DNA from: a virus
Lineage: Duplodnaviria > Caudoviricetes
Virus record (IMG/VR): IMGVR_UViG_3300035144_000004
Span: 1 to 60,965 of that record
Length of the DNA: 60,965 nt
Direction: 5' to 3' (one strand)
The notes under the pieces are model-generated. The model ran no database searches and was not told where the DNA came from. It worked only from the letters and a program-made list of their open reading frames with translations. Below are positions 1,101 to 37,963 of this stretch, piece by piece. Each line of letters begins with the position of its first letter. Position 1 is the first letter of the stretch. A program made the translations under genes and the position numbers.

Positions 1101-3104
1101 ATGAATATGGCGGCAATGAACGATAGCCGGGCAGTATCTCCCCTGGCGGAATACCTTACCAACGTACTGCACCGCCGTTGGGCCTCGGATAGGCGGGAAC
1201 TTGAAATAAAGTGGGAACAGAACGACAACACAATCCGCAGAATAAGACAGAAGAACTGGAAAAACGGAGAAGGTGAGGACTGGCGTGCAGATACTTCCAT
1301 CGGGGCAGTCAAACAAAAGTGGATGACCGGTTGTGCTCTGGTTCTGGATCATGTTCTTGAAGGCGGGGTACTCAATTTCGGGCTGAAGGTGGACAAGGTT
1401 GGTCAGGATATGACCGAGGAAGAGGAAGCAAGTTTCAGTGATGCCCTTGACGATGCCATTGCACGTATCAAAACCCAATTCGAGCTATGCCGCATTGACC
1501 GGACAGCCATCAAGACCGTTTTCGGGATGGGTAAGTATGGCATGGCATGGGCTGGATACAATGTTGACACCTACACCCGCTCCGAGTGGGTTCCTGTCGA
1601 GTATGATTTTGCAGTAGAGGATCCAGAAGACCAGCGATACGAAAAGGTTGTTCACCATATTGATTCCCCAAGTGTTGAGTGGATACCTTGTTGGGAAATG
1701 TATTGGGACATGACCGAAGAGGATATCCGAAAAGGTGACGGCCTATGCCGCGAGCGAAGTATTACCGCCTACAAGCTGCGGGATATGGCGAAAAAAGGCG
1801 ATGGATGGATTCAGGACGAGATTGAATATGTCATTACCCAATGCAAAGAAGCCATGGACAACGGGGAATCTGATGACGATCATGTAGCCCCCGGGCGGAA
1901 GTACCTCGAACACTCCAAGAACAATATCAAGATTCGTGAGTTCCGGTGTCGGGTACCAAAAAAGATCCTTGAAGACTTTGATAAGACGTTGCGTGATCGT
2001 GCGCCGGAGTTCTCCTATGAATCGGAAGTTCTGGAGGAAACGGACGGGCATGAGCAGGAAATACTTGCAGTCGTCGCCAATAACATTGTGGTACGGTACC
2101 TGCCGATTGACGATGAAACCGACCTACGCAAATTCTATCTGATTCCATGGGAAGATGACCTTGACCATACTCACGGAGTCGGGATTGCTGATAATGGCTA
2201 TCAGGCCCAGGAGATCCTAAACGGCGCTATCAACGCGTTCCAGGACAACAAACGGCTGGCCGGCGACGTTCAGGGTTGGTACAATCCGCGGTGTTTTAAG
2301 CAAGACGGCGACATGGTTATTGAACCTGGCAAGCTCCGGCCGCTCGGTACCGATGGATTCAAGAATATCGATGACGCCTTCAAGCAACTGGTAATTGCTG
2401 ATGTCGGGCAATCGTTCCTTGACGTGATCCGGCTTACTCAGGAGATGCTTGACGATGAAACGAATATCCCCAAGATAGCCCAGGGTGCCGCAGGTGTCGT
2501 AACGCCGAAGACAGCCTATGAAGCGTCGCAAATGATGGAGAAGTCGGGGAAATACATTGCTTCCGTTATTCGCAACTTCGACAATGATTTTACCGAGCCC
2601 GTTGTGAATGACTTCCACGAATTTAATATGATGGATCCTGAGAACTCAGTTGGACGCGGCAACTTCGTCGCCATGGCCAAGGGATTCACGTCATACCAGG
2701 ATAAGATTCTCAGAGTGCAAAAGCTGATGCAGGTTATGGGTATGGTAACACAGCATCCGGGACTTGAATCAATGGTCAAGCTGATGAAGCTCATGGAAGA
2801 GATTCTTAGGGCGAACGACATTGATCCGGACGAGATCCTTTATACCCGCGAAGAACTGGCGGAGCGTGAAGCAGCTGAGGCCGAAGCCCAGGCGGAAGCA
2901 GAGCGCGCCGCGCAACAGGAGCAGAACCAGCCGCAGGAGGATCCAGAAAAGGTCGAACTCGAAAAAGAGAAGCTGACGGCAGAGATTGAAGCTATCGAGC
3001 GCGAACAGGAGCGCAAAGACGAGCAGCAGGACTTTGAACAGGAAAAATGGACAGTCGAACAGGCTGCCAAAGAACAGGAACCAGAACCAGGAGTAGCAGA
3101 ATGA
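1101..3104 (+). CDS. Portal (head-tail connector) protein, podovirus type
   Basis: 667 aa, first gene of the head module; portal-like GVGIADNG..AQ..LN..IN...DN and TA.E..QM segments; acidic coiled-coil C-terminus. Confidence 0.85.
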   Translation: MNMAAMNDSRAVSPLAEYLTNVLHRRWASDRRELEIKWEQNDNTIRRIRQKNWKNGEGEDWRADTSIGAVKQKWMTGCALVLDHVLEGGVLNFGLKVDKVGQDMTEEEEASFSDALDDAIARIKTQFELCRIDRTAIKTVFGMGKYGMAWAGYNVDTYTRSEWVPVEYDFAVEDPEDQRYEKVVHHIDSPSVEWIPCWEMYWDMTEEDIRKGDGLCRERSITAYKLRDMAKKGDGWIQDEIEYVITQCKEAMDNGESDDDHVAPGRKYLEHSKNNIKIREFRCRVPKKILEDFDKTLRDRAPEFSYESEVLEETDGHEQEILAVVANNIVVRYLPIDDETDLRKFYLIPWEDDLDHTHGVGIADNGYQAQEILNGAINAFQDNKRLAGDVQGWYNPRCFKQDGDMVIEPGKLRPLGTDGFKNIDDAFKQLVIADVGQSFLDVIRLTQEMLDDETNIPKIAQGAAGVVTPKTAYEASQMMEKSGKYIASVIRNFDNDFTEPVVNDFHEFNMMDPENSVGRGNFVAMAKGFTSYQDKILRVQKLMQVMGMVTQHPGLESMVKLMKLMEEILRANDIDPDEILYTREELAEREAAEAEAQAEAERAAQQEQNQPQEDPEKVELEKEKLTAEIEAIEREQERKDEQQDFEQEKWTVEQAAKEQEPEPGVAE

Positions 3105-4075: not shown

Positions 4076-4966
4076 ATGTCTAGCTATGTTGAAAGAATGC
4101 TCAGGCGTTTTCTGAATGTGGCCCACACTTGGCAGAAGCCGCAGACCTACAGCGGTGCTGTAACTAACAGTAGCACAGTGACCAACAACGGTGCAGTAAC
4201 AAACAACGGTGCTGTAACAAACACTGCCGCTGTAACCAAAACCGGCGTTGGCAAACTAACCGGGTACAATGCTCTCTCCACTCGTTATGAGTTGAATTGG
4301 GTTGCCGGTCAGGATGGTAAGCCCGGCATCAATGCAGACATCCTCAATGCCACCGAAGCGACTCGGATGGTCACTGATCCGTTCTTTGAAGTACTCGGCA
4401 CGAATGCTTCCTCGGACGATGTGACCTATTATGCCGAGGGCGGTATCAAGGTTGAGACTGACGGCGCAGACGGCGATGGGGTATTCCTGCTCCCGCATCT
4501 CGACGCCAATCAGTCGCCATGGACTCAGATCACCTGGGGCAGTGACAAAGAGACTGTCTGGGAATGTGACATTACAACTGGCTCCGCCATTGACAACTGT
4601 ATCATCTGGGCTGGTCTGAAATTGACCAACACTGATGTCGTTGCCACTGATGACGACCAATGTTACTTCCGTTATGAAGATGCTGTGAATAGCGGCAAGT
4701 TCCAGGCTGTTTCCAGTATTGGCGGAACGGACGACGCTCACGATTCCGGCGTAACGGTCGCAGCTGATACCCGCTATCATCTGAAAATCGTTATCGATTC
4801 TGATCGTGTCGCCACAATGTACATCAACGGTACACTGGTTGAAACCACAAGCGCGTTGACGGATGAAATTGACTTCATCCCGTATGTGTGCATTGAAGCA
4901 GACGGCGCAGCCGAAGCCAAGCACATGTATATCCATGGTCAGTCTATCGGCCGGACAATCGGTTAA
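4076..4966 (+). CDS. Putative virion beta-sandwich protein (decoration/head fibre-like)
   Basis: GAGG RBS; N-terminal (GAVTNN)-type repeats; lectin-like C-terminus (YHLKIVIDSDRVATMYINGTLV). Confidence 0.6.
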   Translation: MSSYVERMLRRFLNVAHTWQKPQTYSGAVTNSSTVTNNGAVTNNGAVTNTAAVTKTGVGKLTGYNALSTRYELNWVAGQDGKPGINADILNATEATRMVTDPFFEVLGTNASSDDVTYYAEGGIKVETDGADGDGVFLLPHLDANQSPWTQITWGSDKETVWECDITTGSAIDNCIIWAGLKLTNTDVVATDDDQCYFRYEDAVNSGKFQAVSSIGGTDDAHDSGVTVAADTRYHLKIVIDSDRVATMYINGTLVETTSALTDEIDFIPYVCIEADGAAEAKHMYIHGQSIGRTIG

Positions 4967-5032
4967 TCTCACGAATGCAGTTCGGGGGTTGCATTGCAGC
5001 CCCCTTACCTAACTAAACAAAAGGAAAGCACT

Positions 5033-5977
5033 ATGCCAGACGACGCCACGACGAGCGCAGAGCAAGACGCACCCGAAGTAATTGAGGACGCCCTGAACGA
5101 AGAAGAGCTCAACGACGATGAGCTTGATGCTCTCTTCAGTGGTGAAGAAGCTACACCAGCCGAAGGTGACACTCCAGAAGAGGACAAAGAGGATGACGAA
5201 GATGCCGAAGAGGAAGAAGAGCCCGCTGAGGACACTCCGGCAGAAGACAAAGAGGATGACGAAGATCCTCTGGCCGAGATCAAGAAGCAGGCTGAAGCTC
5301 TGAAGACCGAAGAGGAGAAAGCCCAGGAAGCAGCCAAGGCGCAGGCAGAAGAAGCTGAACGCCGCAACGCTATGAAGGCTGACCTCCTGAAAGAACTCTT
5401 TGGCGGTGAAAAGAAACCGGATAAGATCAATATTGGCGACAAGGAGATTGACCTTGAGAACTTCCGCAACGAAGTCGGAGAAGACCTGGCCAACCAGATT
5501 GATGAGATTGTAACTGCCCGTTCCTTCCAAATGGCAGAGGCTATGGTGCAGAAGCAAATGGAGGCCGCGCAGTTCGCGTCTCAGGAGCAGGTAAAAGAGC
5601 TCATTGCTCAAAATGAAGAATTTAAGTTCCTGTCTCAGGTAGCTACCACACACCCCGAAATTTGGCAGCTTCAGAATGATGACGCCTTCTGGGGTTGGGT
5701 TGATAAGCAGGGCGACGACGTTGCCACGCTGATTGACCGTGGAGGAGTCGCCGGGACGAATACGGTTGTATCGGCCTACAAAAAGGCCATGATCCAATCG
5801 AAAAACAAAGAGATCGACACCAAATTAGGTGCAAAGCTCGACAAACACAAGAAATTGCATGGTTCAACCATGAAGAGTAAGGCAAGCGCCTCGAAAGCAG
5901 CAACCAAGCAAGGTGATGCAATCAGCGAAGATGAGGCCGATACCCTGTTCAACGAAATCAGCGTGGATGATGATTGA
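5033..5977 (+). CDS. Capsid scaffolding protein
   Basis: Very acidic N-terminus, coiled coil, F..WV..Q motif; lies just before the capsid gene. Confidence 0.75.
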   Translation: MPDDATTSAEQDAPEVIEDALNEEELNDDELDALFSGEEATPAEGDTPEEDKEDDEDAEEEEEPAEDTPAEDKEDDEDPLAEIKKQAEALKTEEEKAQEAAKAQAEEAERRNAMKADLLKELFGGEKKPDKINIGDKEIDLENFRNEVGEDLANQIDEIVTARSFQMAEAMVQKQMEAAQFASQEQVKELIAQNEEFKFLSQVATTHPEIWQLQNDDAFWGWVDKQGDDVATLIDRGGVAGTNTVVSAYKKAMIQSKNKEIDTKLGAKLDKHKKLHGSTMKSKASASKAATKQGDAISEDEADTLFNEISVDDD

Positions 5978-6186
5978 TGGCAGAATCGACCACAACAACC
6001 GCAATGTGTTCTTATAAGATGGAAACGGTCGTCAAGGCCGCCATGGACAATGAGACGCGTTGCCCGTATCCACGTTGCAATCGGATCCTTTTCAAGGGAA
6101 TGCTTGGCCCCGGCTCTCTGGTCGATGTCATGTGCCCGAAATGCAAAAAGCACACGATTTTACAAGTCGTACAAACCGAAAACTAA
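5977..6186 (+). CDS. Mu Com-like zinc-ribbon regulator
   Basis: RCPYPRCNRILFKG...VMCPKCKK; ATG overlaps the scaffold TGA. Confidence 0.75.
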   Translation: MAESTTTTAMCSYKMETVVKAAMDNETRCPYPRCNRILFKGMLGPGSLVDVMCPKCKKHTILQVVQTEN

Positions 6187-6215
6187 AATTTAACCGTATA
6201 AATGCCCTTTAGCCA

Positions 6216-6263
6216 GAACGCCGCGAGTGTCCGTGCATTGGAATCACAACACAGGAGGCTCGC
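6216..6263 (+). promoter_or_regulatory. Putative Com-binding hairpin and competing SD-sequestering stem before the capsid gene
   Basis: GAACGCCGCGAGTGTCC at 6216-6232; 6223-6235 can pair with 6250-6263, covering AGGAGG. Confidence 0.65.
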
Positions 6264-6266
6264 ATT

Positions 6267-7301
6267 ATGGCGACGAACTACAACACAAACGGCGATCTCG
6301 ACCAACGTACCGCCGTCTACGCTGCAAAGCGTCTGCTGAAACGCGCCCAGGAGAAAATGATCCTGGAACGCTTCGGTCAGAAGGATCCGCAGCCCCAAAA
6401 CAAAGGGAAGACCCGTACATACCGGCGTTATCATTCGCTGGCGGCTCTTCCTGCAACTGCTCCTCTCGCTGAGGGCATTACCCCAACTGCCAAGAAACTG
6501 ACGTTCTCGGACGTGTCCGTGACGTTGGAGACTTACGGTGATCTCATTGAGCTGACCCGTGAAGTCAAGCTGTACCACGAAGATCCGGTCTTTAAGGAGA
6601 CTATGGATATTCTCGGCGAACAGCAGGCAGAAGTCGTGGAGCTGATCCGCTGGAACGCACTCAAAGGCGGTACCAACGTGTACTATGCCAATGGCGTCAC
6701 TTCCCGCGCAACCGTCAACTCCCCCGCAAAAGTGTCCGATCTTAAGAAGATCGAGCGTGGTTTTATGAAAAATAAAGCCACGAAAATGGAACGCATTATC
6801 AAGGCATCTGCTGACGTTTCCACGGAGCCGATCCAGGCCGCCTTTATTCTGCTGGGACACACTGACTGCAAAGCTGACCTCGAAAACATGCCCGGCTGGG
6901 TTCCCGTTGCCAACTACTCCAACAGCATGAAAGCCATGCCGTGCGAAGTGGGAAGTATCGGCGCATTCCGCGTGCTGCTTTCGTCCTTGTTCTCCCCATG
7001 GGAAACGTCCGGTGCTTCCGGTACCACGTATCTCTCAGGTGGCGAAGAGGTGTCCGTTGCTGCTCAGGCCGATGTCTATCCGCTGATCGCAATCGCGAAA
7101 GACGCATACGCCATTGTCCCGCTCCAGGGTCGTGGTGCAACCAAGCCGGTTGTCCTTCAGCCGAAGCCTGCTCCCGGTGATCCTATGGGTCGTAAGGGTT
7201 CTGCAAGCTGGACTGCTGATCAGGCATGTGTCATTCTCACTCAAACTTTCGTTGCCCGTCTGGAAGTCGCTGCAAGCGCCGTTCCTCCGGGTGGTGAGTA
7301 A
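6267..7301 (+). CDS. Major capsid protein, N4-gp56 family
   Basis: AGGAGG RBS; LERFGQ..PQP.NKGKT..YRRY, LAEGITP, YGDLIELT and GDPMGR.G motifs. Confidence 0.92.
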   Translation: MATNYNTNGDLDQRTAVYAAKRLLKRAQEKMILERFGQKDPQPQNKGKTRTYRRYHSLAALPATAPLAEGITPTAKKLTFSDVSVTLETYGDLIELTREVKLYHEDPVFKETMDILGEQQAEVVELIRWNALKGGTNVYYANGVTSRATVNSPAKVSDLKKIERGFMKNKATKMERIIKASADVSTEPIQAAFILLGHTDCKADLENMPGWVPVANYSNSMKAMPCEVGSIGAFRVLLSSLFSPWETSGASGTTYLSGGEEVSVAAQADVYPLIAIAKDAYAIVPLQGRGATKPVVLQPKPAPGDPMGRKGSASWTADQACVILTQTFVARLEVAASAVPPGGE

Positions 7302-7316
7302 TTGGAGGGCTGAACT

Positions 7317-7979
7317 ATGATGCAACAAGTTTCAGGCACATTTGACGGCACCGGAGCAGATCTTTATATCTGCCTCGGCTTCATTCCCGACTGGGTAAAG
7401 ATCCGGACTCTGGAAACCACCGACGAGGAAATTGTCGAGTGGAACAAGAACATGCGCAGCGCGGAAGCTTTCGGCGGCTTCGACACTGACGATGATGGTG
7501 CAATCGCTCCTATCACTCACGGCGTCGGTATTGCTGAATATCGCGGCGGCGACCTTGTTTCCTCTGCTTCCACGGTCTACCTGCAACGTCGTGCTGATGA
7601 AGATCTGCGCGATGCCGGTACCGGTGATGTTATCAGTTCGTGGACGCTGGATACTCCGGCTAACCGCACTGGTCACGTTAATGCCGGTGTCAATACGACT
7701 CATGTGGGCGAAGGCTCCTTGATCTGTATCGGCAACGAAGCCAAGGGCGATGGCGAATGGGCCGTTATCCAGGCTATGACCAACGACGGTGATGCAACCG
7801 ACGAACTCACCCTGTCCAAGGCACTCGGCAGCGGTCAAGTTTTGGCCCTGAGAGGCATGTACGACTTTATTGGCGTACCTGCCGGAACTGTCACCAAAGC
7901 AGGGTTCTTCATCGACAGTACTGCGTCTGTTAACACGGACAACGAACTGCTGATGTTCGAGGCCGGCACCTTTAACTAG
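7317..7979 (+). CDS. Putative minor capsid/cement protein
   Basis: Directly after the capsid gene; G.F.G.G...YI.LGF.PDWV motif; GGAGG RBS. Confidence 0.6.
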   Translation: MMQQVSGTFDGTGADLYICLGFIPDWVKIRTLETTDEEIVEWNKNMRSAEAFGGFDTDDDGAIAPITHGVGIAEYRGGDLVSSASTVYLQRRADEDLRDAGTGDVISSWTLDTPANRTGHVNAGVNTTHVGEGSLICIGNEAKGDGEWAVIQAMTNDGDATDELTLSKALGSGQVLALRGMYDFIGVPAGTVTKAGFFIDSTASVNTDNELLMFEAGTFN

Positions 7980-11769: not shown

Positions 11770-11843
11770 CGGACGCCTTCTCTCATGGCCACGAGCCACC
11801 AAATAAGTACCGCGATTACCAAGCGTAACACAGGAAACAACAC

Positions 11844-12332
11844 ATGAAGAAACTCGCTCTCTCAAATCAGAAAGTCCTCGACATGGACAAGACGTTGCAC
11901 GAACTCGGCACGATCAAATCAAAGCCTGAGTTCAGCATGAAGGTTGCACGCAATCGGGCAGCACTTAAGCCGTTTATCGAGGCATTGACCGCCGCAAGTA
12001 CGCCAAGCGAGGCTATGAAAGAGTTCGACAAAAAGCGGAATGCGTTGATACTGACGTATGGCAAAGAGCGGGTGAATGATTTCGGGCAGTCCATAACAGA
12101 AGTGACTCCTGAGAACAAGGATGTCTACCACGAAAAACTGGACGCCCTCAAAGAAGAGTATGACGCCGCTATCACTGAATACGACGACCAAATCAAAGAG
12201 TTCAATGACACCATTCTTCCCGGAATGGCCAACGACGGTGAGCTAATCGAAATGTACGAACTGCCGGAAGAGATGCCAGACGGCGTTTCAGGAAATCAGT
12301 TGTTCGTTCTTATCGACATCATCAAAGCGTAG
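11844..12332 (+). CDS. Hypothetical helical protein (possible tail chaperone)
   Basis: AGGA RBS; immediately before the tail fibre. Confidence 0.6.
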   Translation: MKKLALSNQKVLDMDKTLHELGTIKSKPEFSMKVARNRAALKPFIEALTAASTPSEAMKEFDKKRNALILTYGKERVNDFGQSITEVTPENKDVYHEKLDALKEEYDAAITEYDDQIKEFNDTILPGMANDGELIEMYELPEEMPDGVSGNQLFVLIDIIKA

Positions 12333-20865: not shown

Positions 20866-23800
20866 ATGAGCGAGTTTGACGCCCTTAGCAACCTTGACAG
20901 TGCAAAGCCAAAGCTTCCAGCATTAAGACGACCCAAAGCGCCGCAGGCTCCAAGGGTTGACGAGGTTAAAAGCGAGTTTGATGCACTGTCTGATATATCT
21001 GAGTTTGAAGCGCAACGCGCACAGCGTATTGCGGCAGAAGATCAGATCAGGCGTGAAGAATCTGCCGGCATGTCTACTTTCGGCAAGCAATTCCGTGCTG
21101 GCGTTCATGGAATGATCGGCACAGTTCATGCCGCGCGCGGGGCGCTCAACCGTCTGACTGGTGATTATGTTGACGAGGCTGCTGCATTGCGCAATGCTGA
21201 AGAACGTATGGCCATGGCCGCGTCATATCCTCGTCAAACGTCACTCACTGGAACTGAAGGAACGAAAAGTGCGTTTGAGGATCCGATTACATATTTCATG
21301 GAAACGGCAGGCCAAGCGGCTCCGTCGCTAATTGAATCTGTTGGAACCGGCATTTTGAGTGCTGCCGTTGCAACACAGATTACCCCTGGAATTGACCCGA
21401 CAGACGTTGCATTGGCTCCTACAGGTTTTGTCGCTGGCTTGCTTGGCAAGCAGGCCGTTAAGAAGATGCTTTTCAATTATCTCGGCAAAAACCTTGCTAA
21501 ACGAGTGATTGAGGTTGGGGCAAAGCATGGTGCAAAAGGTTTAGGTGTTGCGGCAGCCAGGAAGGTTATTCCGGCGATGTCGATTGCAGCCGTTACCGGT
21601 AGTCACGAAGCTGGCGGCATGTATATGGATCTCAAGGAGCGTGGTATTACTGCACCTGGCTCATCGTTGGCTATGGGGCTTGTTTCTGGATTGTCAGAAG
21701 GGCTTATGGGTGCAACTCCAAGCATGATGAAGCTTGTCGGGCATTTGGGTAAAAAAGGTATTGCCGATACGTTTAAGCGCCGGGGAGTCAAGGCCGCCGC
21801 AGGTATTCTATGGGATGCCGCTAAGGGTGCCAAGGAAGAAGGTATTCAGGAGGGATTTCAAGAACTATTGGCAATGGCCAACATGGATATCAACGATCCA
21901 AACCACAAGTGGACGAAAGAGAGCTTTATTCGCTTTGTAGAGTCGGCAGCAGCCGGCGCGGTTGTTGGTGGCGTTACCGGCGGTGCGGGTGGTATTCGCA
22001 CTGCTATTGGTGGTCTTCGTCAGGATCAGGCAGCAGCCCCGACAGCCATAATTGCAGAGGAAGAGGCCGCAATACCTCCGGAGAGCGCGGAAGGCCAGCC
22101 TTATGTGCCCCCCGATACATTGTCCGGACTGAGACAACCTCCAGCAGATATCGCCGATGCGGAGCTTGACTTGGGCATCCAGCCTATACCTCCAGAGCCA
22201 AGTTCGTTACAAGATCTCGATGACGACTCACGCAACCGCGTAGCCGCACACACTGGCAAAGGCAAGTTTCACCTTCTGAAGACTGCCAAGGACATGGGGT
22301 TGGACATTGACCCGAATTTGCCGAGAGCGCAAATTGCCCGGGCGATTGTGGATGCCGAAAATGCAGCCGTATCCCAACAAATCCAGCAGGAAGTTGCACC
22401 GGAACCAGTGCAAGAAGAGATTTTAGCTCCCGAGACACAGCAGGAACCAGAGGTGCAACCCGAAGTACGTCAGCCATTGGCTTTGACGGAAGATGAGGCA
22501 ATAGAACAATTCGGCACTCCAGAGGAACGCATTCAGGATGCCGGTAAAATCGCCATGAACGAACGCCGGATTGACAAGACTCAGCGCAGTTTTGACAGGT
22601 TCGCGCAGACCAATGAGGCGTTAAATAATCCTGCATTCGTGGCAGCAAATCAAGAGCTACTGAGTGCCGCCGAGAACGCGATTGCCCAGAACAACCATGC
22701 ATTGTTCAAGGATGCTCTGATCCCCCTGAAGAAAGAAATGCGCCGCTGGAAACGTGATCAGCGTCGGGCGATGGAGGTACGTCGTCAGAGCGCACAGGCG
22801 CGGCAAGCACAGCGTCGGCAACGTCTTCGCGATGTTACACCTATTCAAAAACCAGAAGTGGAGCAGATCCAAGATGAGCAGGACTTACAGGAGATTCCCC
22901 CAAGGCAGGAACAGCAGCAAGTGGGGCCGGTATTGCAGGAAGAAGCACAGCCGGTCACAGATCGGGAGCCGGAGGGAGTGTCCGTGGTGCCAGAGCGGGA
23001 AGCTGCACCGGCAGAAGAGGCAGACGCCGATCTAGATGCTCGCTACATTTCCAAGGACAGGTTGACAGAAGCAGAGGCCGCCGAGGTTACAGGCGTTGAA
23101 GCCATAGAGGGTGTTGAATTTGGGCAGTTCCGTGGAAAACGTGTTATGCGCTCAAGACGTACGGGCCCAGTATGGAGATTTCAACCGAGCCCAGGGGAAT
23201 TTGTTGCCGCAAAGAAAGCTGCACCAGAAAAAGTAGAGACAAAGAAGGCACCAGTTGAGCCCACCGAGGCACCCGCCCCCGCAGAGGCGGAGGCAAAGCC
23301 GGAAGAAGCCCAAGCGCAGGAGGTGGCACCGGAGGAAGAAGTTAAGGCAGAACCAACTACTGCCGCCAAAGAGCCAGCCCCGCAGCCAAAGGTGGAGAAG
23401 AAGGCCGAGAAAATTGAGGACTTTGGTGAAGTACTGCAAGGTGCACGTAAGCATTTTGCCGAAACATTTGAAGCCGCAAAAGAGTTGGATATCCGGTTAG
23501 TTCCGCTATCAAAGTCATTCCCTGCTCCAAATTATCAAGAGCTTGTTGACAAGGGCGTTGATCCTCTGGCGGTCGGCTGGGCTCGAACATTGCGCGAATC
23601 CATTGGGAATAAACCGCGCAAACGTGGTGTCGAGTATTGGGCAAAAACAACAGAATCAGTACGCAACGTGTTTGAAAAGCTGATTTCTGGCGACGTTTCT
23701 CCTGAAAAGATTGCAGCAGAGATAGGCAATACAAATGTGTACGGCAATCTCGATTATAAAACAAGGGGCCGTGCAGAATTGTATGCAGAGCTAGGGCATG

Positions 23801-26800
23801 AAAACTCATTGGCTGGCTACACTATGGCACAATCACACTTCAATCTCTACACTGATCGAAAAACTGGCGAAGTTCTTGAGAATGTTAATAGATGGCGTAT
23901 TTCAAATGATTCAAGGCGCGGTTATGCCTCGGATATTGCTACTGCTGAAACCAAGGAAGAGGTCATTTCCCTGTTCAAGACATTTCTTGATGAGAAGAAA
24001 GCTGCTGACAGTACCAAAGGAAAGAAATTCAAGATTGGCACTCTTCGACGCAATGGCAAGCATATCATTTTCAAAAAGATTCGCAGAAATGAAGTAATCT
24101 TAAGTCCTGAGTTTGATTCTCGTGTTGAGGCTGCGAAATATCTTGATGAGAATTTTGACAAAATCAATGAAGAGTTTGAAGCGTATCGGACGATTCACCC
24201 AGTCAGGAAGGATATCAATGACCCGCGTGTTGGTGAGGCGTATCGCGATGGCGATGTGACTCCTGAGTTATTTACCAATGCTTTTGGTTTTCGTGGCGTT
24301 CAATTTGGAAATTGGGTTGAAAATGACAAGCGGCAAGCTGATTTGAATGATTCGTTTGACGCGCTTATGGATCTTGCGGCCGTTCTTGGCGTTGAGCCCA
24401 AGGCACTATCTCTAAACAGTCGCATTGGCCTTGCATTTGGCGCTCGTGGCAAAGGTGGTAAGGGTGCTCCAAAAGCTCACTTTGAACGCGGTGCCGGTAT
24501 TATCAATTTGACCAAGAAAATGGGTGCAGGTTCATTGGCGCATGAGTGGTTTCATGCAGCTGATGAGACATTTGCTATTCAAGACGAATCAAATCTTACG
24601 ATGTTGTCAGATGCAAAGCCGTGGCATACTCCCAGGAAAATACGTCCAGAGTTACTACAAGCATTCAAAGACGTGCAAGCCGCCATTGCTGGAACAGAAC
24701 TAAAAAAGCGTTCAAAAGAACTGGACGCAAAGAGAACCAAGGATTATTGGTCAACAGACGTTGAAATGTCAGCGCGAGTATTTGAGCAATACGTAATTCA
24801 CATGCTGAACGCTCAGGGATTTTCCAACGACTTCTTGGCTAATATCGTAAGCGATCCTGAGGTATTTCTTGGAGGTGAGAAAGAGTTTCCGTATCTTCTA
24901 CAGTCAGAAGAAAAGCCTGTATTTCAGGCGTTCAATAATCTCTTTAAGGAAGTCAAGACGCGCAAGACTGATAAGGGTGTCGAAATGTTCCGTACCGCTC
25001 CCACCGCTACCCGCAAGACGTTGACCAAGCTCCAGGAGCGCGTGTTAGGCAATGAGTTTAAGCGGATGCTGGGAAGCAGCGCAAAACTTGAGTTTGCCGA
25101 CGCTCTGTTTGCTGGTGGTAAGGTTCGATTAGGTCAGTACGTTGACGCATTGGCCAAGGTTGCGCGTAATCAGACGCTGGAAGAAGCAGAGCTCACGACG
25201 TACCATGAGGCTTTCCACGCCGGGCTTGACCTGTTTGTTACTCCGAAGCAGAAAGAGTCAATCCTTGAGCAGTACAACGGCGACGAGGAAGCAGCAGCAG
25301 ACGCTTTCATGCAGTATGCCAAAGACCGTAAGAGTGTTGTCGGCAAGATCCGGATTGCATTTGGTAAGATCCTGAGTGCTATCAAGAAGGCGTTCGTAGG
25401 TGAGGGCAAGAAAGACCGCGCCATGGCCTTCTATGACAAGCTCTATACCGGAGAACTGGCAACACAGCCGACGACTGAAGTTGTTCCTGAGCTTGCCCCC
25501 GCGTTCCGCACTCGTAGCATACTAAGAAATACTATGGTTCAGTCATTAGGCCAGGAGACAAAGGCGTTGTTCGACAAAAGGATTGAACAAAAGCAGCCGC
25601 GTGAAAGGGCTAGGAGTTTGGAAGAGCTTATCGAGGCATCATTTGTGAATGAAGATAATGGAGATCATCCATTTGAAGGGTTCTCTGAAAAGGAATTACG
25701 TATCATAGATCCAACGTCATTCGATCCAAATGCGTCTACAGATGCGGTTGATGAGGCTTATGAAAAGGCCATTGGAATCAGCAATATCAGGTATCGCACG
25801 CTTGATATCAACGAATCATCCATAAAAGGCACTTTCCCAGGAGCTGAATTGTCCAAGGGTGATAAAATGTGGTCTGTGGTGCTTCCTGGCGGCTCAAAGT
25901 TTGACATCATTCTTGCCGAGGACATTCCGCTTGACGTTGAAAGCATAATGCGTGATTATAAAATGACACGTGAGCAAGCTAATTCGGTTAAATCAGCAGC
26001 CGGGGCAACTGCATCAGCCGGTGTAGCTCTCCGCCTTTCTGATGGCAATGTATTAACTCTCAATGACCTATCTATCTTGATTGATGAGTCGAAGTACGAT
26101 GACAGTACGATAAAGCACGAAGCGTTGCACACAGCAAAAGAGCTTGGCTTCTTCGATACGGCATACGGCAAAAGTCTTTGGGATGCGTTGATGTTGGAAT
26201 ATGGCAGCGAAGAAGCCATAGCGAAGGCACGAGGCGCGTGGGAAGGTCAATACGGCCTATGGGCGAACCTTGTGCAATGGTTCCATAGGATGGCCGCGAA
26301 TTTCGGTATTGAATGGAATCCGGACTTTGCCATGAATGAAACATTCACCTCTGAATTTTGGGCTCAAGGTGTAAAAGACTTTGATCCTAAGGAAATCAGT
26401 TATCAAGTAACGGTACCAGATCCGGCAAATGCACCTATAACAAGTATAAGAAACGACGTTGCCAATGAGTTGAGAAATCTCAGGGGCAAAGATAAGCTTG
26501 AAGGTGTTGAAGCTGAGACACAGGAAATGTGGCTCGACGATGCTGGCACCGCACTCCATTACGACAATTCTGCTGGAGGTCGCCTAATACAGGAAATGCT
26601 CAGAAATCCAAGGGTACTGAGCGATCGAGAAACAGCAATATTACAAGTTCACTATCGGCGTGAGTACAATGTCTATGAACGGCTTTCTGATAAGCTGTTT
26701 GTCCTCCAGGATAAAAATGCCCACCCGTCTGAAATAGCCACCGCTCAGGCTGAAGTTGATACTCAGTTCGCCGCTCTATCCAAGATTGAGGAAGCAACAA

Positions 26801-29790
26801 AATCTGCCGGCAGAGAGTGGGGGCGTGCCGGTGTAGCTCGTCAGATAGCCCTGGCAAAGGATTTCTCATTTCAGGGCATGGAGCGCAAGGCGCGCATTGC
26901 AAACGGCGGTAAACAGCTTTCACGTACGCAGCGCCAAGAAGTCAAAAAGATGGCTGATGAGATTGCCAGGCTTGAGAGTAGAATAAAGGAAGAGTCTGAC
27001 AAGATCGAGAACCGGGAACGTGATAAGGCTATCCGCGACAACATTGAGCAAGACATTAAGACTGAGAAGCCAAGGAAATCCGTAAAGAAACGTACTGTTC
27101 TCAATAAAATTGGAAAGATTCTCTCAAGTCTTGGATTTTCACTGCGGAAGCCAAAGGATGATATAAAGTTCCAAATTTCTGAAGTAGGCGATGGTAAGAC
27201 TGAAGCTCAAACCGTTATCAAGGAATTGTATGACGATGCTGTCAGAATGGCAAAAGTATACCAGGAAGAGGGTATTACAGATGTCGCTTCCTTCATTTCA
27301 GTATTCAGGAGCGAATTTGGCGAGGGTGCCAAGAATGCAGAATTCACCTTTAAAAAGGCGTGGACAGATACGGTCGTAGAGGCTGAAGCTGAAAAGGTAG
27401 ATGTCAATATAGATGATATAAAGGCTGTTACCCGGGAAGCTAGGCGCATACAGAAGCAACTGGTTAAGGCCGGAGTTGTTGAGCAAAATCTAATCATTGA
27501 TGCTGTCCATGAGATCCTTGGTGCTGTAATACCTGGCATGAATAGAAATCAAGCTATTGATGCCTTAAGCGGTTATGGTCAATACTCCAAACCGTCAAAA
27601 AGCGAAGTTGATGTGGCTATCCGAGATCTGAACGCACGGCACCTCCAGTTATCCAAGCAGCTTGTCCTTGACGAAGCAATCAGAAAGGCAAATGAATGGA
27701 AAAAGCAGGGGATGAGTGATGAGCAGATTGCAACCAAGCTTGTTGACGAAGGGTTGCAGTTAAAAGCAACTGGATTTGTGAGAGGTAAGCAGAGCGACAT
27801 TGTGCGGCATATGATTGCCAAAACAAACGAGATGAAAAAGGAGCTTCCCCCGTTACCTTCAGCAAAAGAGGGACAGTTACAATCAGCACTTGACGCGGCC
27901 AAACGAGCTACCAGGAATAGAATAAATGATCTACAATGGGAAATCGACAATAAGGAGCGTATCGTCAAGACTACCAAGGCTTTGAAGGCCGACAAAGAGC
28001 TTGAACAGCTTAGAAAGCAGCGTGATGAGCTTGTAACAGAGCATAAAAAGATATTCAAGCAAGGTGCCAGCGAGGAACAGCGCGTAGCTGCTGCTGAAAG
28101 ATCGCTTGAACGGTCTATCGCGCAGGTTGAGGATCAGCTCAAGACAGGTGACATTGCCCCCAAGAAACTGACCAAGGTAACGTCTCCGAAAATCGAGGCG
28201 CTTAGATCTCGCCTGAAGGCATTGCAAGCGCAGCGAAAAGTTTTGAGGGACGTCGCTAATCCGAAATTGACACCAGAGGAAAAAGCCCGTCGGAATTACG
28301 AGGCGAATATTCTTCGCCGCATTGCTGACTATGAGCAAAGGATTGCTGACAAAGACTTCGCCCCACAAAAGCGAAAGGATCCGCGACAGCTATCCGCCGA
28401 AGAGTTGAAACTAAAGCACAGGCTTGAGGATACAAAGCAGAAGTTCTTTGAAAAGGCCGGTCAGTACAGACTTGCAAATCTTAGCCCTGTTGGAAAACTC
28501 GTTGACTATGCAAGGGAAACTGCGCATCTGTCACGCGCTCTGATGACATCTATTGACTTGTCGGCAGTATTTAGGCAAGGTGGTATTACCGTCTATTCGC
28601 ATCCCAAGCTTGCAAAGGAAGCTGCCAAGGCCATGACTAAGGCACTGATCAGCAAGCAGGAGGCGTTCAACTCTGCTGAAGCGATCCGCAATGACAAACT
28701 GGGTCAGTTTGCCGAAACAGCAGGGCTCAATATTACTGCTGACGATGGCCGTATCACCCGCCAGGAAGAGGCATTTATGGGGCGTTGGGCTGACAAGATC
28801 CCCGGCGTTGCTGGTAGCGGCAGGGCATATGTGACGTTCCTGAACAATATGCGATTCAACCTGTTTAAGATGATGGTTGAAAATATCGGCAAAGACGGCA
28901 GGGTCACGCTTGATGAGGCCAAAATCATTGCAAAGTATATCAATGTTGCGACTGGTCGGGCTGACTTTAAAGCGCTCAACAGTGCTGCTGCAAACATGAA
29001 TACGGTGTTTTTCGCTCCAAGGTATGTTGCATCCCGGTTCCAGTACCTTGCGATGCCGTTCTATCTTCCGTTTATGAAGACATCAACAAGGGTAAAGAAA
29101 GCCCTTGCTTTGGAGTATGCACGGACGTTTGCAGGCGCATCTGTCTTTATGGGGTCTCTTATGGCATTAGCCTATATCAGCGGCGGTGAAGATGATGAAC
29201 CGACACTTGAATTTGATCCGCGTTCATCAGACTTTATGAAGATAAGGATTGGTGAGACACGTATTGACGCTATGGCTGGACTGCAACAGGCTCTTGTATT
29301 CTCTTCAAGGATAGCAACCGGAAAAACAAAATCTGTAACATCGAAAGAACTCAAAGAGCTTTCTGGAAAACGTGGGCCGTATGCCACAACACGATGGGAC
29401 GTAGCCGGTAGATTTTTGAGGACAAAGCTTGGCCCAATCCCAGGAGCCACAGTAACCGCCATGGATGACATGACTGACGTTGTAGGTAACAAGAAGACTC
29501 CTACTTCTTTAATTGGCGGCCTATTCTTCCCGTTATCTGTCAGGGAGGTAGTGGATACAATTAGCGCTCGGGGCATCACTAAGGGCACTGCAATTTCGAC
29601 TATGGCGATCTTTGGAATGGGTGTAGGGACCTATGGTGATCGTACCAGATACATATCTGCTTCTGCAGAAGAGCGAAAAGAAATGTTTGAGAAAGATCTC
29701 AAAAAAGCCAAGAAAGGCGATGCTCCGCTTGCTTACGCAGATCAACTATCTCCTGATATGCTGAGAAAATACCAAGCCAAAATACGGTGA
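20866..29790 (+). CDS. Large polyvalent ejection-type protein with LPD5/LPD1-like and zincin (HExxH) domains
   Basis: 2974 aa; KIEDFGE..QGARK, FGFRGVQFGNW, SLAHEWFHA, DYWS...EM.AR.FE; further HEAFH and HEALH. Confidence 0.8.
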   Translation: MSEFDALSNLDSAKPKLPALRRPKAPQAPRVDEVKSEFDALSDISEFEAQRAQRIAAEDQIRREESAGMSTFGKQFRAGVHGMIGTVHAARGALNRLTGDYVDEAAALRNAEERMAMAASYPRQTSLTGTEGTKSAFEDPITYFMETAGQAAPSLIESVGTGILSAAVATQITPGIDPTDVALAPTGFVAGLLGKQAVKKMLFNYLGKNLAKRVIEVGAKHGAKGLGVAAARKVIPAMSIAAVTGSHEAGGMYMDLKERGITAPGSSLAMGLVSGLSEGLMGATPSMMKLVGHLGKKGIADTFKRRGVKAAAGILWDAAKGAKEEGIQEGFQELLAMANMDINDPNHKWTKESFIRFVESAAAGAVVGGVTGGAGGIRTAIGGLRQDQAAAPTAIIAEEEAAIPPESAEGQPYVPPDTLSGLRQPPADIADAELDLGIQPIPPEPSSLQDLDDDSRNRVAAHTGKGKFHLLKTAKDMGLDIDPNLPRAQIARAIVDAENAAVSQQIQQEVAPEPVQEEILAPETQQEPEVQPEVRQPLALTEDEAIEQFGTPEERIQDAGKIAMNERRIDKTQRSFDRFAQTNEALNNPAFVAANQELLSAAENAIAQNNHALFKDALIPLKKEMRRWKRDQRRAMEVRRQSAQARQAQRRQRLRDVTPIQKPEVEQIQDEQDLQEIPPRQEQQQVGPVLQEEAQPVTDREPEGVSVVPEREAAPAEEADADLDARYISKDRLTEAEAAEVTGVEAIEGVEFGQFRGKRVMRSRRTGPVWRFQPSPGEFVAAKKAAPEKVETKKAPVEPTEAPAPAEAEAKPEEAQAQEVAPEEEVKAEPTTAAKEPAPQPKVEKKAEKIEDFGEVLQGARKHFAETFEAAKELDIRLVPLSKSFPAPNYQELVDKGVDPLAVGWARTLRESIGNKPRKRGVEYWAKTTESVRNVFEKLISGDVSPEKIAAEIGNTNVYGNLDYKTRGRAELYAELGHENSLAGYTMAQSHFNLYTDRKTGEVLENVNRWRISNDSRRGYASDIATAETKEEVISLFKTFLDEKKAADSTKGKKFKIGTLRRNGKHIIFKKIRRNEVILSPEFDSRVEAAKYLDENFDKINEEFEAYRTIHPVRKDINDPRVGEAYRDGDVTPELFTNAFGFRGVQFGNWVENDKRQADLNDSFDALMDLAAVLGVEPKALSLNSRIGLAFGARGKGGKGAPKAHFERGAGIINLTKKMGAGSLAHEWFHAADETFAIQDESNLTMLSDAKPWHTPRKIRPELLQAFKDVQAAIAGTELKKRSKELDAKRTKDYWSTDVEMSARVFEQYVIHMLNAQGFSNDFLANIVSDPEVFLGGEKEFPYLLQSEEKPVFQAFNNLFKEVKTRKTDKGVEMFRTAPTATRKTLTKLQERVLGNEFKRMLGSSAKLEFADALFAGGKVRLGQYVDALAKVARNQTLEEAELTTYHEAFHAGLDLFVTPKQKESILEQYNGDEEAAADAFMQYAKDRKSVVGKIRIAFGKILSAIKKAFVGEGKKDRAMAFYDKLYTGELATQPTTEVVPELAPAFRTRSILRNTMVQSLGQETKALFDKRIEQKQPRERARSLEELIEASFVNEDNGDHPFEGFSEKELRIIDPTSFDPNASTDAVDEAYEKAIGISNIRYRTLDINESSIKGTFPGAELSKGDKMWSVVLPGGSKFDIILAEDIPLDVESIMRDYKMTREQANSVKSAAGATASAGVALRLSDGNVLTLNDLSILIDESKYDDSTIKHEALHTAKELGFFDTAYGKSLWDALMLEYGSEEAIAKARGAWEGQYGLWANLVQWFHRMAANFGIEWNPDFAMNETFTSEFWAQGVKDFDPKEISYQVTVPDPANAPITSIRNDVANELRNLRGKDKLEGVEAETQEMWLDDAGTALHYDNSAGGRLIQEMLRNPRVLSDRETAILQVHYRREYNVYERLSDKLFVLQDKNAHPSEIATAQAEVDTQFAALSKIEEATKSAGREWGRAGVARQIALAKDFSFQGMERKARIANGGKQLSRTQRQEVKKMADEIARLESRIKEESDKIENRERDKAIRDNIEQDIKTEKPRKSVKKRTVLNKIGKILSSLGFSLRKPKDDIKFQISEVGDGKTEAQTVIKELYDDAVRMAKVYQEEGITDVASFISVFRSEFGEGAKNAEFTFKKAWTDTVVEAEAEKVDVNIDDIKAVTREARRIQKQLVKAGVVEQNLIIDAVHEILGAVIPGMNRNQAIDALSGYGQYSKPSKSEVDVAIRDLNARHLQLSKQLVLDEAIRKANEWKKQGMSDEQIATKLVDEGLQLKATGFVRGKQSDIVRHMIAKTNEMKKELPPLPSAKEGQLQSALDAAKRATRNRINDLQWEIDNKERIVKTTKALKADKELEQLRKQRDELVTEHKKIFKQGASEEQRVAAAERSLERSIAQVEDQLKTGDIAPKKLTKVTSPKIEALRSRLKALQAQRKVLRDVANPKLTPEEKARRNYEANILRRIADYEQRIADKDFAPQKRKDPRQLSAEELKLKHRLEDTKQKFFEKAGQYRLANLSPVGKLVDYARETAHLSRALMTSIDLSAVFRQGGITVYSHPKLAKEAAKAMTKALISKQEAFNSAEAIRNDKLGQFAETAGLNITADDGRITRQEEAFMGRWADKIPGVAGSGRAYVTFLNNMRFNLFKMMVENIGKDGRVTLDEAKIIAKYINVATGRADFKALNSAAANMNTVFFAPRYVASRFQYLAMPFYLPFMKTSTRVKKALALEYARTFAGASVFMGSLMALAYISGGEDDEPTLEFDPRSSDFMKIRIGETRIDAMAGLQQALVFSSRIATGKTKSVTSKELKELSGKRGPYATTRWDVAGRFLRTKLGPIPGATVTAMDDMTDVVGNKKTPTSLIGGLFFPLSVREVVDTISARGITKGTAISTMAIFGMGVGTYGDRTRYISASAEERKEMFEKDLKKAKKGDAPLAYADQLSPDMLRKYQAKIR

Positions 29791-36427: not shown

Positions 36428-36932
36428 TTATTTGACCTCCGTTTGGTTTTCGTTGTCAATTCGTTCATGTTCATATTCATAGGCTTTAGCAGCACGCTTT
36501 TCGTGTCTAAACCTTCCTAAAAACTTTCGTTTCCCTTTTATGTATATTGCTGCCACCCATTTTCCACGCTCTTTGTCAAAACTGACACCACGATACTTGC
36601 TTGATTTTTCAATCCTTGATCCAGATCTCTCATTGTTCTCTCTTTGAGACACATATTCAAGGTTTACCAGTCGGTTGTCAGTTCGGACCCCATTTATGTG
36701 GTCAACGTGTTTTTCAGAAACACTAACAAAAGCTGCCATTACTAGTCTGTGGACATTTTTCGTATTTCCTAATAATGATACACTTAAATATCCACTACTT
36801 GATAACCCTGGTTTGAGGATTGTTGGCTTTCTAAACCTTCCAAGATCGTCAACAAATCCAACACTTCTAACTCTTCCAATTTCGCTTACCTCGTAGCGAT
36901 CTTCATAGCCAATTTGCCTTCCATCTTTCCAT
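36428..36932 (-). pseudogene. NUMOD4-HNH-AP2 homing endonuclease whose start is out of frame
   Basis: Open frame 36931-36428 reads IGYEDRYEVSEIGRVRS...VHRLV...VDHING.RTDNR..NLE...SSKYRGV; the ATG at 36932 is in another frame. Confidence 0.7.
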
Positions 36933-37963
36933 TAAACATCCTCCAATCTTTGAAACTCGCAACACCAGACCCAGGGGTTGTCATCCCATGTGCCGTAGAT
37001 GGAGTTCCATATCTTTTTGAATGCAGAAACAGGGTTGCTTGTAAATTCACGCCACGGCCAGCCTTTGCCAAATGGCAAGCCGTCAACATCGCCAATGCCG
37101 TATTTGGTAAGCTTGCCGTCCTTAGTCACGGCACATAGCCCCTCTGCTATTGCATCATCATTGGTAATGTCCTGCACCCGCTCAACCCATACGCGCTTGA
37201 CCTTCAGCTTGATACGGCAGGCGGCTTTCGGCATGTTTCTCGGTAATTGGTCAGTATACTCAACCCATGTTTCTCCAGAGATGACACGAGATACTGTCTT
37301 GTGATTAACTTGATATTGACGTGCTAAATCAGAAATCGACACGCCAACATCATGAGCCACTCTGATTTTGTGGGCAATTTCCATTGAAAGCTTTGAGATT
37401 TGGTGTTCAGAGTGTATGCCTCTGCCGTGATATTTCCTATCGCTCCAATTGTCACTATATGTACCCCAGTCAAGATTTTCCGGAGCGTTATTAAGGCTAT
37501 TGCCATCAATGTGACGAACAACAGCTTTTTTGAAAGGAGCATTCCCGTACCATGCAGTACATACCAACTTGTGAACTGTCCTATTTACATCTTTTTTGTT
37601 AAGTCTCAGTGTTAGGCGCAGATAGTTGCTCGTCGCATTACTTTTTAGTTTTTTCCATTCACCGCTTGCTTTTGACCATATACTACCGAAAACGTCAGCA
37701 GCATACTTATTGTCATAACCTTTGATTTCCATAGCAGGGATCAGCACATCACCAGGCTTGCCGAATGGGGATTTTCTTGGATTACCTAAAGCATCAATAA
37801 CCCATTTGTTGCCTTGTAAATACTTTGGAAAATGCCTGCCATCAAACAAGCGAACTTTATCATATTCTGTTTGAAATTTGACTGGGCGCCGCGTCTGCGT
37901 CTTTGTACCGTCCAGGATTGCCCGCACCATTTCGCCGTTGAATAGTATTGGAATCTCTTTCAT
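36932..37963 (-). CDS. ASCH/PUA-like phage protein with an in-frame HNH+HTH insertion
   Basis: PILF...MVRAILDG.KTQTRR...PFGKPGD and MP..ACRI.L.V..V.VERVQDI...DAIAEG...NPWVW flank RHIDGN..NN...NL.WGT and an HTH. Confidence 0.8.
   Translation of the reverse strand: MKEIPILFNGEMVRAILDGTKTQTRRPVKFQTEYDKVRLFDGRHFPKYLQGNKWVIDALGNPRKSPFGKPGDVLIPAMEIKGYDNKYAADVFGSIWSKASGEWKKLKSNATSNYLRLTLRLNKKDVNRTVHKLVCTAWYGNAPFKKAVVRHIDGNSLNNAPENLDWGTYSDNWSDRKYHGRGIHSEHQISKLSMEIAHKIRVAHDVGVSISDLARQYQVNHKTVSRVISGETWVEYTDQLPRNMPKAACRIKLKVKRVWVERVQDITNDDAIAEGLCAVTKDGKLTKYGIGDVDGLPFGKGWPWREFTSNPVSAFKKIWNSIYGTWDDNPWVWCCEFQRLEDV

Follow-up and report, generated by a model that had tools for sequence, protein, structure and literature searches.

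We report a putative translational switch in the leader of the major capsid gene of a tailed virus (Duplodnaviria; Caudoviricetes), record IMGVR_UViG_3300035144_000004 of IMG/VR, a complete virus record of 60,965 bp with direct terminal repeats that was analysed at its full length and is called the window throughout. Directly upstream of the capsid gene (ATG 6267) lies a small gene (5977-6186), here termed com-like, for a four-cysteine (C4) zinc ribbon resembling Com, the protein that activates mom in phage Mu, and the 80 nt between the two genes can form either a short hairpin of the type selected by Com or a long helix that buries the Shine-Dalgarno (SD) sequence of the capsid gene. We consider it likely, with a probability of roughly 0.7, that the capsid gene is subject to Com-dependent translational activation similar to that of Mu com-mom; this reading is supported because homologous leaders keep the covarying hairpin, the published Com motif and the SD-pairing fold. 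What we infer from these features is that Com binds, that the effect of binding is to activate translation, and what biological purpose this would serve.

Mu Com is an activator and the sole characterised member of its family, and both its recognition of RNA and the opening of the inhibitory structure are described as still unsettled by Nowacka et al. 2019 (PMC6483171), from which our statements on the Com motif and the Mu region are taken. Systematic evolution of ligands by exponential enrichment (SELEX) with a Com zinc finger yielded hairpins that carry CC(N)2-3GAG in their loop and have a 3-4-nt stem, always closed by a C-G pair; a second half-motif, GAG(N)2CC, was also obtained, and the GA of the loop is protected upon Com binding (PMC6483171). 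The Mu region reads GAAUGCCUGCGAGCAUCCCACGGAG, and the Mu site that the first-pass annotation of the window had given, GAATGCCTGCGAGCATCC, is indeed present in the Mu genome (NC_000929; L009:876-893) and quoted in the same paper.

The hairpin GAACGCCGCGAGUGUCC of the capsid leader (6216-6232) has the stem A6218-C6221 / G6227-U6230 (GAACGCCGCGAGTGTCC), and its core (6218-6230, + strand), ACGC-CGCGA-GUGU, holds the loop CGCGA within the sequence CCGCGAG, which fits the published Com motif. The core lies within a 28-nt element (6210..6237, + strand), UAGCCAGA-ACGC-CGCGA-GUGU-CCGUGCA, which we propose as the Com-binding or 'ON' element. Part of it, the 23-mer 6215-6237, occurs once in the window when up to 3 mismatches are allowed, with 0 occurrences expected. 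A loose scan of the window for stems of at least 3 bp closed by C-G around a loop C-N2-3-GA gave 16 matches on the + strand and 15 on the - strand, close to the 15.5 +/- 4.2 expected per strand by chance, and the bare motif is therefore not rare in the window; 6218-6230 is the only match that has GA on its 5' side as well as CC on its 3' side, as in Mu.

The SD sequence of the capsid gene, AGGAGG (6253-6258), ends 8 nt before the AUG and can be paired by the strand that also builds the hairpin. This anti-SD strand (6223..6235, + strand; GCGAGU-G-UCC-GUG) takes in part of the loop, the hairpin's 3' arm and the sequence CCGUG, and with the SD strand (6250..6263, + strand; CACAGGAGGCUCGC, CAC-A-GGA-G-GCUCGC) it forms 6+3+3 = 12 bp over AGGAGG, exactly the pairing that the first-pass annotation had drawn. 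When 6187-6290 is folded with RNAfold, the 12-bp inhibitory helix is both the minimum-energy and the centroid structure (-25.1 kcal/mol), and four further pairs, between CGCC 6219-6222 and GGCG 6269-6272, cover the G of the AUG. The predicted helix and the hairpin exclude each other, the 3' arm of the one being the anti-SD strand of the other, as had also been claimed. The fold of 6187-6290 has a z-score of -2.08, with 7/200 shuffled sequences folding as well, and that of an 87-nt leader a z-score of -2.86. By prediction, then, the SD or start codon is sequestered beside the Com site, and a default OFF state with protein-dependent switching to ON is the natural reading of the leader as modelled.

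Capsid-based searches of viral and metagenome contigs, together with Com-based searches, supplied 14 distinct leaders, all of them in loci with the order scaffold, com, capsid, and the hairpin is kept in every one. The same gene order is found where the capsid proteins are just 47% (L154) and 50% (L158) identical to that of the window. Among the relatives, capsids of 73-87% identity go with Com proteins of 33-53% identity, and despite this divergence of Com the flanks of the leader core, UAGCCAGA-stem-loop-stem-CCGUGCA, are nearly invariant. In an alignment of 12 leaders, 45/45 stem cells pair and 3/4 base pairs change on both sides; the covariation score is reached by 0/500 shuffles, and helices slid along the alignment as controls pair in 0-60% of cells. 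RNAalifold picks the hairpin unprompted and adds three invariant lower pairs between the flanks. The stems are of the types ACGC/GUGU, GGGU/ACCC, GGC/GCC, AGC/GCU and AGGU/GCCU, with GGAC/GACC in the outlier L154, and we count about five independent stem replacements. That outlier, in which Com has a CxxC first knuckle, reads GCCAGA-GGAC-CUACGA-GACC-CCGAGCA and shows the same architecture with an A.A mismatch in the stem. The first-pass annotation had named homologous loci as the place to look for its two structures; both are kept there, and the changes in the hairpin are compensatory. Those of its proposed checks that are open to computation all favoured its reading.

The SELEX motif (PMC6483171) provides support that is independent of the first-pass annotation, and we give it heavy weight because it was defined without reference to these phages. 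CC(N)2-3GAG is present in 11/14 leaders, the loop GA in 14/14 and the C-G closing pair in 12/14. Folded alone, the 28-mer adopts the shape ..((..(.((((.....)))).)..)). in 12/14 leaders, at -3.6 to -7.0 kcal/mol.

The SD-burying fold recurs among the leaders as well. The SD is predicted to be paired (probability of being unpaired <=0.28) in 12/14, the AUG being paired instead in L001 and L154, and in most of the SD-paired leaders its partner is the hairpin 3' arm together with CCGUG, as in L141, where these form nine perfect pairs with the SD (GCCUCCGUG/CACGGAGGC); in L135, L147 and L136, which have longer loops, the partner is the 5' arm and the loop. An outer helix, AGCCA/UGGCU, lies over the start codon in many leaders, and this outer part differs in L154 (UUGAC.../...GUCAA). 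The resulting OFF folds are long irregular hairpins of about 17-22 bp, with energies of -20 to -36 kcal/mol and z-scores of -1.5 or lower in 10/12 leaders (range +0.47 to -4.54), and in the proposed OFF helices 81% of cells are paired, as against 30-41% in slid controls. In the comparison of constrained with free folds that the first-pass annotation had suggested, enforcing and shielding the ON element raised the predicted accessibility of the stretch from SD to AUG in 14/14 leaders, the median going from 0.32 to 0.46; the ensemble paid for this with 12.5 kcal/mol in the median.

The protein encoded at 5977-6186 resembles Com in several comparisons. The profile match to Mu-like Com anticipated by the first-pass annotation was obtained with hhalign (93.7% probability with a 6-sequence profile; 95.5%, E 1.4e-8, with a 21-sequence profile) and with PHROGs ('gpCom control of modification', E 2.3e-4; 'translational regulator', E 0.009). 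BLASTP against Mu Com aligns the second half of the finger with 11/29 identities (pairwise E 1e-7; window protein TRCPYPRCNRILFKGMLGPGSLVDVMCPKCKKHTILQ, Mu Com IRCKNCNKLLFKADSFDHIEIRCPRCKRHIIM, NC_000929), and its four cysteines stand in two knuckles with an ILFKG strand of the LLFK type between them, a feature of the Com family. A word-indexed search gave 21 close relatives, one of which carries the source annotation 'phage FluMu protein Com', and Y13, R28, C29, C34, C53, C56, L38-F39-K40-G41, L43 and G46 are invariant in 21/21. A full HMMER search of 1.84 billion representatives with the family profile returned 201 proteins at E<=1e-3; among 60 that were scanned of the 150 matches listed, 24 matched the Pfam family PF10122 (Zn_ribbon_Com) at E<=0.01 (best 2.8e-8), the next family being matched by 7. 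Relative to Mu Com, which has an N-terminal finger with a CxxC first knuckle and a disordered C-terminal tail, the window protein has a two-residue insertion in the first knuckle, an N-terminal extension, a C-terminal finger and no C-terminal tail. The AlphaFold2 model is a ribbon of four short strands with a core pLDDT (predicted local distance difference test) of 75-82 and a mean of 69.3; a search of the PDB by fold with this model gave nothing at E<=0.001, and a search of the PDB by sequence found no solved Com structure. We read the product as belonging to a divergent Com-like clade, not as a certified member of PF10122, with its binding of zinc and RNA as predictions.

Relatives were also sought outside the set described. 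Among isolated phages, neither tblastn with the Com-like protein (E<=10) nor a search with the DNA found a close relative; a search of genome contigs with the Com profile found no relative, and this search therefore gives no clue to the host. Four queries with single Com proteins returned the L158 locus, a gene in L159, nothing, and one spurious match (L160), which is too few for an estimate of how often Com-like genes precede one gene or another. In the viral contig L158 (L158:979-3262) the Com-like gene, of the CxxC type (phrog_6417, E 1.9e-4), overlaps the gene before it by UGAUG, and its leader has a CC-AUA-GAG motif with a stem of at most 2 bp. In the viral contig L159 (L159:1923-2260) the Com-like gene (phrog_6417 'translational regulator', E 2e-10) stands between the large-terminase and portal genes and is followed by a textbook intrinsic terminator instead of a Com-type leader. 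Some distant relatives of 97-121 aa (P0024, P0025, P0028, P0029, P0031, P0033) carry a tandem pair of Com-like zinc ribbons.

The com-like gene (5977..6186, + strand; ATG 5977, TAA 6184-6186) encodes 69 aa and follows a putative scaffold gene (4994..5977, + strand; 327 aa from TTG, with a likely alternative start at ATG 5033), the stop codon of which, TGA 5975-5977 in the sequence, shares its A with the com-like ATG in a UGAUG overlap. The label 'scaffold' is given because of position and composition: the product is an acidic protein with a high content of Ala, Glu and Lys, is encoded between the portal and capsid genes, and matches no Pfam family and no PHROG family. Downstream, a gap of 80 nt leads from the com-like stop to the capsid gene (6267..7301, + strand), the 344-aa product of which is of the N4-gp56 type (phrog_1357, E 7e-55; Pfam Phage_capsid_4, E 5.2e-8) and shares 35% identity with the protein annotated as 'N4-gp56 family major capsid protein' in Pseudoalteromonas phage vB_Pun_Y3. 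This nearest isolate has a hypothetical protein at the scaffold position, and its scaffold and capsid genes are 11 nt apart with no com. The positions given for the com-like gene, the scaffold overlap, the 80-nt gap and the hairpin in the first-pass annotation all proved exact when checked against the sequence. In 12/12 relatives with an upstream open reading frame (ORF) in the locus, the start of com likewise overlaps the stop of that ORF or lies no more than 11 nt from it. No promoter-like or terminator-like site is found on the + strand of 4800-7500, the 80-nt gap included; since no such site separates the three genes and the com-like ATG lies so close to the scaffold stop, Com is probably made together with the scaffold.

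Com-dependent activation would, on this evidence, proceed as follows. A divergent Com-type zinc-ribbon RNA-binding protein would be translated from 5977-6186 by coupling to the upstream scaffold gene, and the capsid mRNA leader would fold by default into the long stable OFF hairpin, in which the 3' arm of the small hairpin and CCGUG pair with the SD region and, in most relatives, UGGCU at the start codon is taken up by AGCCA. The weak 28-nt element to which Com would bind, probably while it emerges from the polymerase, consists of UAGCCAGA, a 3-4 bp stem with a loop C-N-YGA, and CCGUGCA. Once bound, Com would hold the anti-SD and anti-AUG strands against each other and leave the ribosome-binding site free (ON), and the capsid protein would thus be made only after Com, and hence the scaffold, has been made.

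A number of results weigh against this account. The OFF fold is 3-17 kcal/mol more stable than the ON fold. Activation would consequently require that Com bind tightly or during transcription, an odd requirement for production of the most abundant virion protein; with so large an energy gap in a very highly expressed gene, the model has to assume kinetic capture during transcription. SD accessibility is predicted to rise only modestly, since the start region can draw the freed SD into a small local hairpin. Taken by itself, the ON hairpin does not exceed shuffled sequence in stability (z about 0). The OFF helices covary weakly, with changes on both sides in 2/21 pairs and 212/500 shuffles doing as well, which we ascribe to the invariance of the SD. 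Three of the 14 loops depart from CC(N)2-3GAG (L136 with N5, L141 with UC..GAG and L005 with UC..GAA), L001 has no excess fold stability (z +0.47), and in L158, where the gene order is kept, the leader measures 41 nt and lacks a stable fold (z +1.15). The leaders come from related phages, and the counts given are of sequences rather than of independent events. A search of sequencing runs found no RNA run containing the window sequence; the one run that does contain it is of DNA and may come from the source sample. On the side of the protein, the match to Com failed with Pfam, in which the window protein is unmatched by PF10122 at E<=1 and just 9/21 close relatives match it at that threshold (best E 1.6e-4). 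The IBR model, below threshold, matches 14/21 members of the family, more than PF10122 does, and is the best Pfam match of the window's own protein. The first cysteine pair, finally, is CxxxxC in the window protein and CxxC in Mu Com, a spacing that the Com-like proteins of L154 and L158 also have.

Some of these results would suit a leader that acts without the zinc-ribbon protein, as a constitutive attenuator or as an mRNA-stabilising or ribonuclease III (RNase III)-type hairpin, with the Com-like protein in some other role. Hairpins that stabilise mRNA or serve RNase III-type processing are common between podovirus late genes, and an OFF fold that is long, irregular and very stable, next to a small hairpin that is thermodynamically unremarkable by itself, is what such an element could look like; in L158, moreover, com lies between scaffold and capsid with no evident switch, and in L159 a terminator takes the place of a target leader. 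A protein-independent element, however, leaves unexplained the covariation, with 45/45 cells paired, of a 3-4-bp stem that the stable fold lacks, the appearance of the published Com motif in 11/14 loops, and the position of the sole full Mu-like site of the genome directly after its sole Com-like gene; we regard it as unlikely.

The protein might, alternatively, bind the hairpin and act negatively or homeostatically, repressing or tuning capsid translation or affecting mRNA decay. Sequence does not reveal the direction of regulation, repressors are in the majority among the characterised phage RNA-binding proteins that regulate translation, and the invariant flanks AGCCAGA and CCGUGC could be the footprint of a larger protein. 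A hairpin about 20-30 nt upstream of the SD is nevertheless unlikely to block ribosomes sterically, its formation frees the SD from the anti-SD strand with accessibility rising in all of the modelled leaders, and the one characterised relative, Mu Com, activates (PMC6483171); negative action therefore has a slim chance in our assessment. That the resemblance is a coincidence, with a generic zinc ribbon of unrelated function beside a leader conserved for other reasons, is very improbable: zinc ribbons are short and weakly match many models (here IBR, RNA polymerase subunit P and TFS) and the fold search had no significant match (best E 1.3), yet the proteins are also alike outside the cysteines, in the LLFK/ILFKG core, and in the E-x-x-C-P-x-C region, and the RNA motif, its structural context, the nearby SD-sequestering helix and the gene order each reproduce the Mu system independently.

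Com-dependent activation of the capsid gene would share with Mu com-mom a small C4 zinc-finger protein encoded directly upstream of its target in one operon, a 3-4-bp hairpin with GA on its 5' side, CC on its 3' side and a C...GA loop (CC-UGC-GAG-CAU-CC in Mu, CC-GC-GAG-UGU-CC in the window), and a Com site that adjoins a helix hiding the SD or start codon of the target. The target is, however, the essential and most abundant structural protein in the window, whereas in Mu it is a toxic accessory DNA-modification enzyme, and the hairpin lies in the 80-nt intergenic leader rather than, as in Mu, inside the com coding region. In Mu the predicted Com hairpin and the inhibitory stem coexist side by side (-14.7 kcal/mol), whereas in the window they are mutually exclusive and the inhibitory fold has a much higher stability (-25 kcal/mol); on the predicted folds, the architecture of the window is a stricter, mutually exclusive version of that of Mu. 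We rate the putative mechanism as Com-mom-like, and what would be new is the class of target, the divergent protein subfamily and the mutually exclusive architecture.

Com homologues have been noted beside other genes. The available portions of PMC3299994, PMC6240691 and PMC4684702 place a Com homologue directly upstream of hin1523-type DNA methyltransferases in FluMu and Pnm1, with presumed translational activation and mention of possible Com sites at the 5' end of hin1523, and upstream of L-type bacteriocins, tailocin cargo, a lysis enzyme and a levansucrase in Pseudomonas. These accessory or 'cargo' systems resemble the locus studied here in that a Com homologue directly precedes the presumed target gene. 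Their targets are accessory and often harmful, in Mu-like prophages or Pseudomonas tailocin clusters, none of them serves core morphogenesis, and none is accompanied by a covarying switch in those portions of PMC3299994, PMC6240691 and PMC4684702. In a full-text library that lacks most subscription-journal papers, we found no description of a capsid or other core structural gene under the control of Com, so one may still exist in print. Control of head assembly after transcription has a precedent in phage P22, the scaffolding protein of which autoregulates its own synthesis negatively and post-transcriptionally. In both cases the amount of a head-assembly protein would be set after transcription and tied to the state of other head proteins; the regulator in P22 is, however, the scaffold itself, acting negatively on its own synthesis, whereas in the window we propose a dedicated RNA-binding protein, co-translated with the scaffold and acting positively on the capsid.

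As to purpose, the switch may be a timer, a control of ratio or a true checkpoint. The suggestion of the first-pass annotation, a checkpoint of assembly at which capsid synthesis depends on that of the scaffold, is speculation drawn solely from the gene order and the overlapping stop and start. A stronger version, in which capsid translation is strictly locked by its own leader and opened solely by a Com-type protein clamping the 28-nt element, with the Com:scaffold ratio fixed by the stop/start overlap and with the anti-AUG and anti-SD strands as the two invariant flanks of the element, would amount to a 'scaffold first' checkpoint built on a three-way RNA switch; we put it forward tentatively, with the odds somewhat against it. 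If true, Com would be the first trans-activator required for translation of a phage major capsid gene, and Com-type zinc ribbons would be general-purpose translational activators with uses beyond the guarding of toxic accessory genes.

Com-mom is a classic example of translational activation, yet it has been studied in one setting alone. The 14 protein/RNA pairs of the clade described here, which have co-evolved and differ in their stems and in the length of their loops, form a natural series, and their geometry is cleaner than that of Mu because hairpin and inhibitory helix are mutually exclusive. Were the capsid gene activated by Com, Com-type control would be known for the central structural gene of a virion as well as for harmful accessory genes. 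This raises the testable idea that in some phages translation is the step at which capsid protein is timed or rationed against scaffold. At 28 nt and 69 aa, the element and the protein are also small enough to serve as an orthogonal translational ON-switch.

Several other candidates were considered and set aside. A conserved leader peptide (ORF 6202-6339) was rejected as its ATG varies among relatives, and an Rfam scan of 5500-6800 gave nothing relevant. A second Com-type hairpin at 11786-11798 (+ strand), CA-UGGC-CACGA-GCCA-CC, which is intergenic and 46 nt upstream of the ORF 11844-12332, was rejected as a probable chance occurrence: it has no stable surrounding fold (z +1.27) and is absent before the homologous gene in L157. 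A scan of viral contigs with a degenerate pattern gave mostly chance matches beyond the loci already found. One recurring group among its matches is the Rfam Proteo-phage-1 RNA (RF03044, 66-70 bits; L011:7199-7296 and L025:523-620), which lies beside a tRNA gene and is unrelated.

Elsewhere in the window, the head module has its portal gene at 1101-3104, followed by small ORFs, and a 296-aa ORF of unassigned role (4076-4966, + strand) lies between portal and scaffold; it has a short internal repeat of GAVTNN-like units at residues ~28-55 and a weak SO2946-like match at its C-terminus (E 0.0023). A DNA methyltransferase (47387-48724, - strand; phrog_116, E 4.5e-84) and an HNH endonuclease-like gene (36932-37963, - strand; phrog_59, E 4e-38) are both encoded away from the com-like gene, and the methyltransferase is therefore no obvious target of Com. 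An ORF of 2974 aa (20866-29790, + strand) matches a family of unknown function (phrog_616, E 7.8e-96) and, given the N4-gp56-type capsid and the terminal repeats, may encode a giant virion protein as in N4-like phages.

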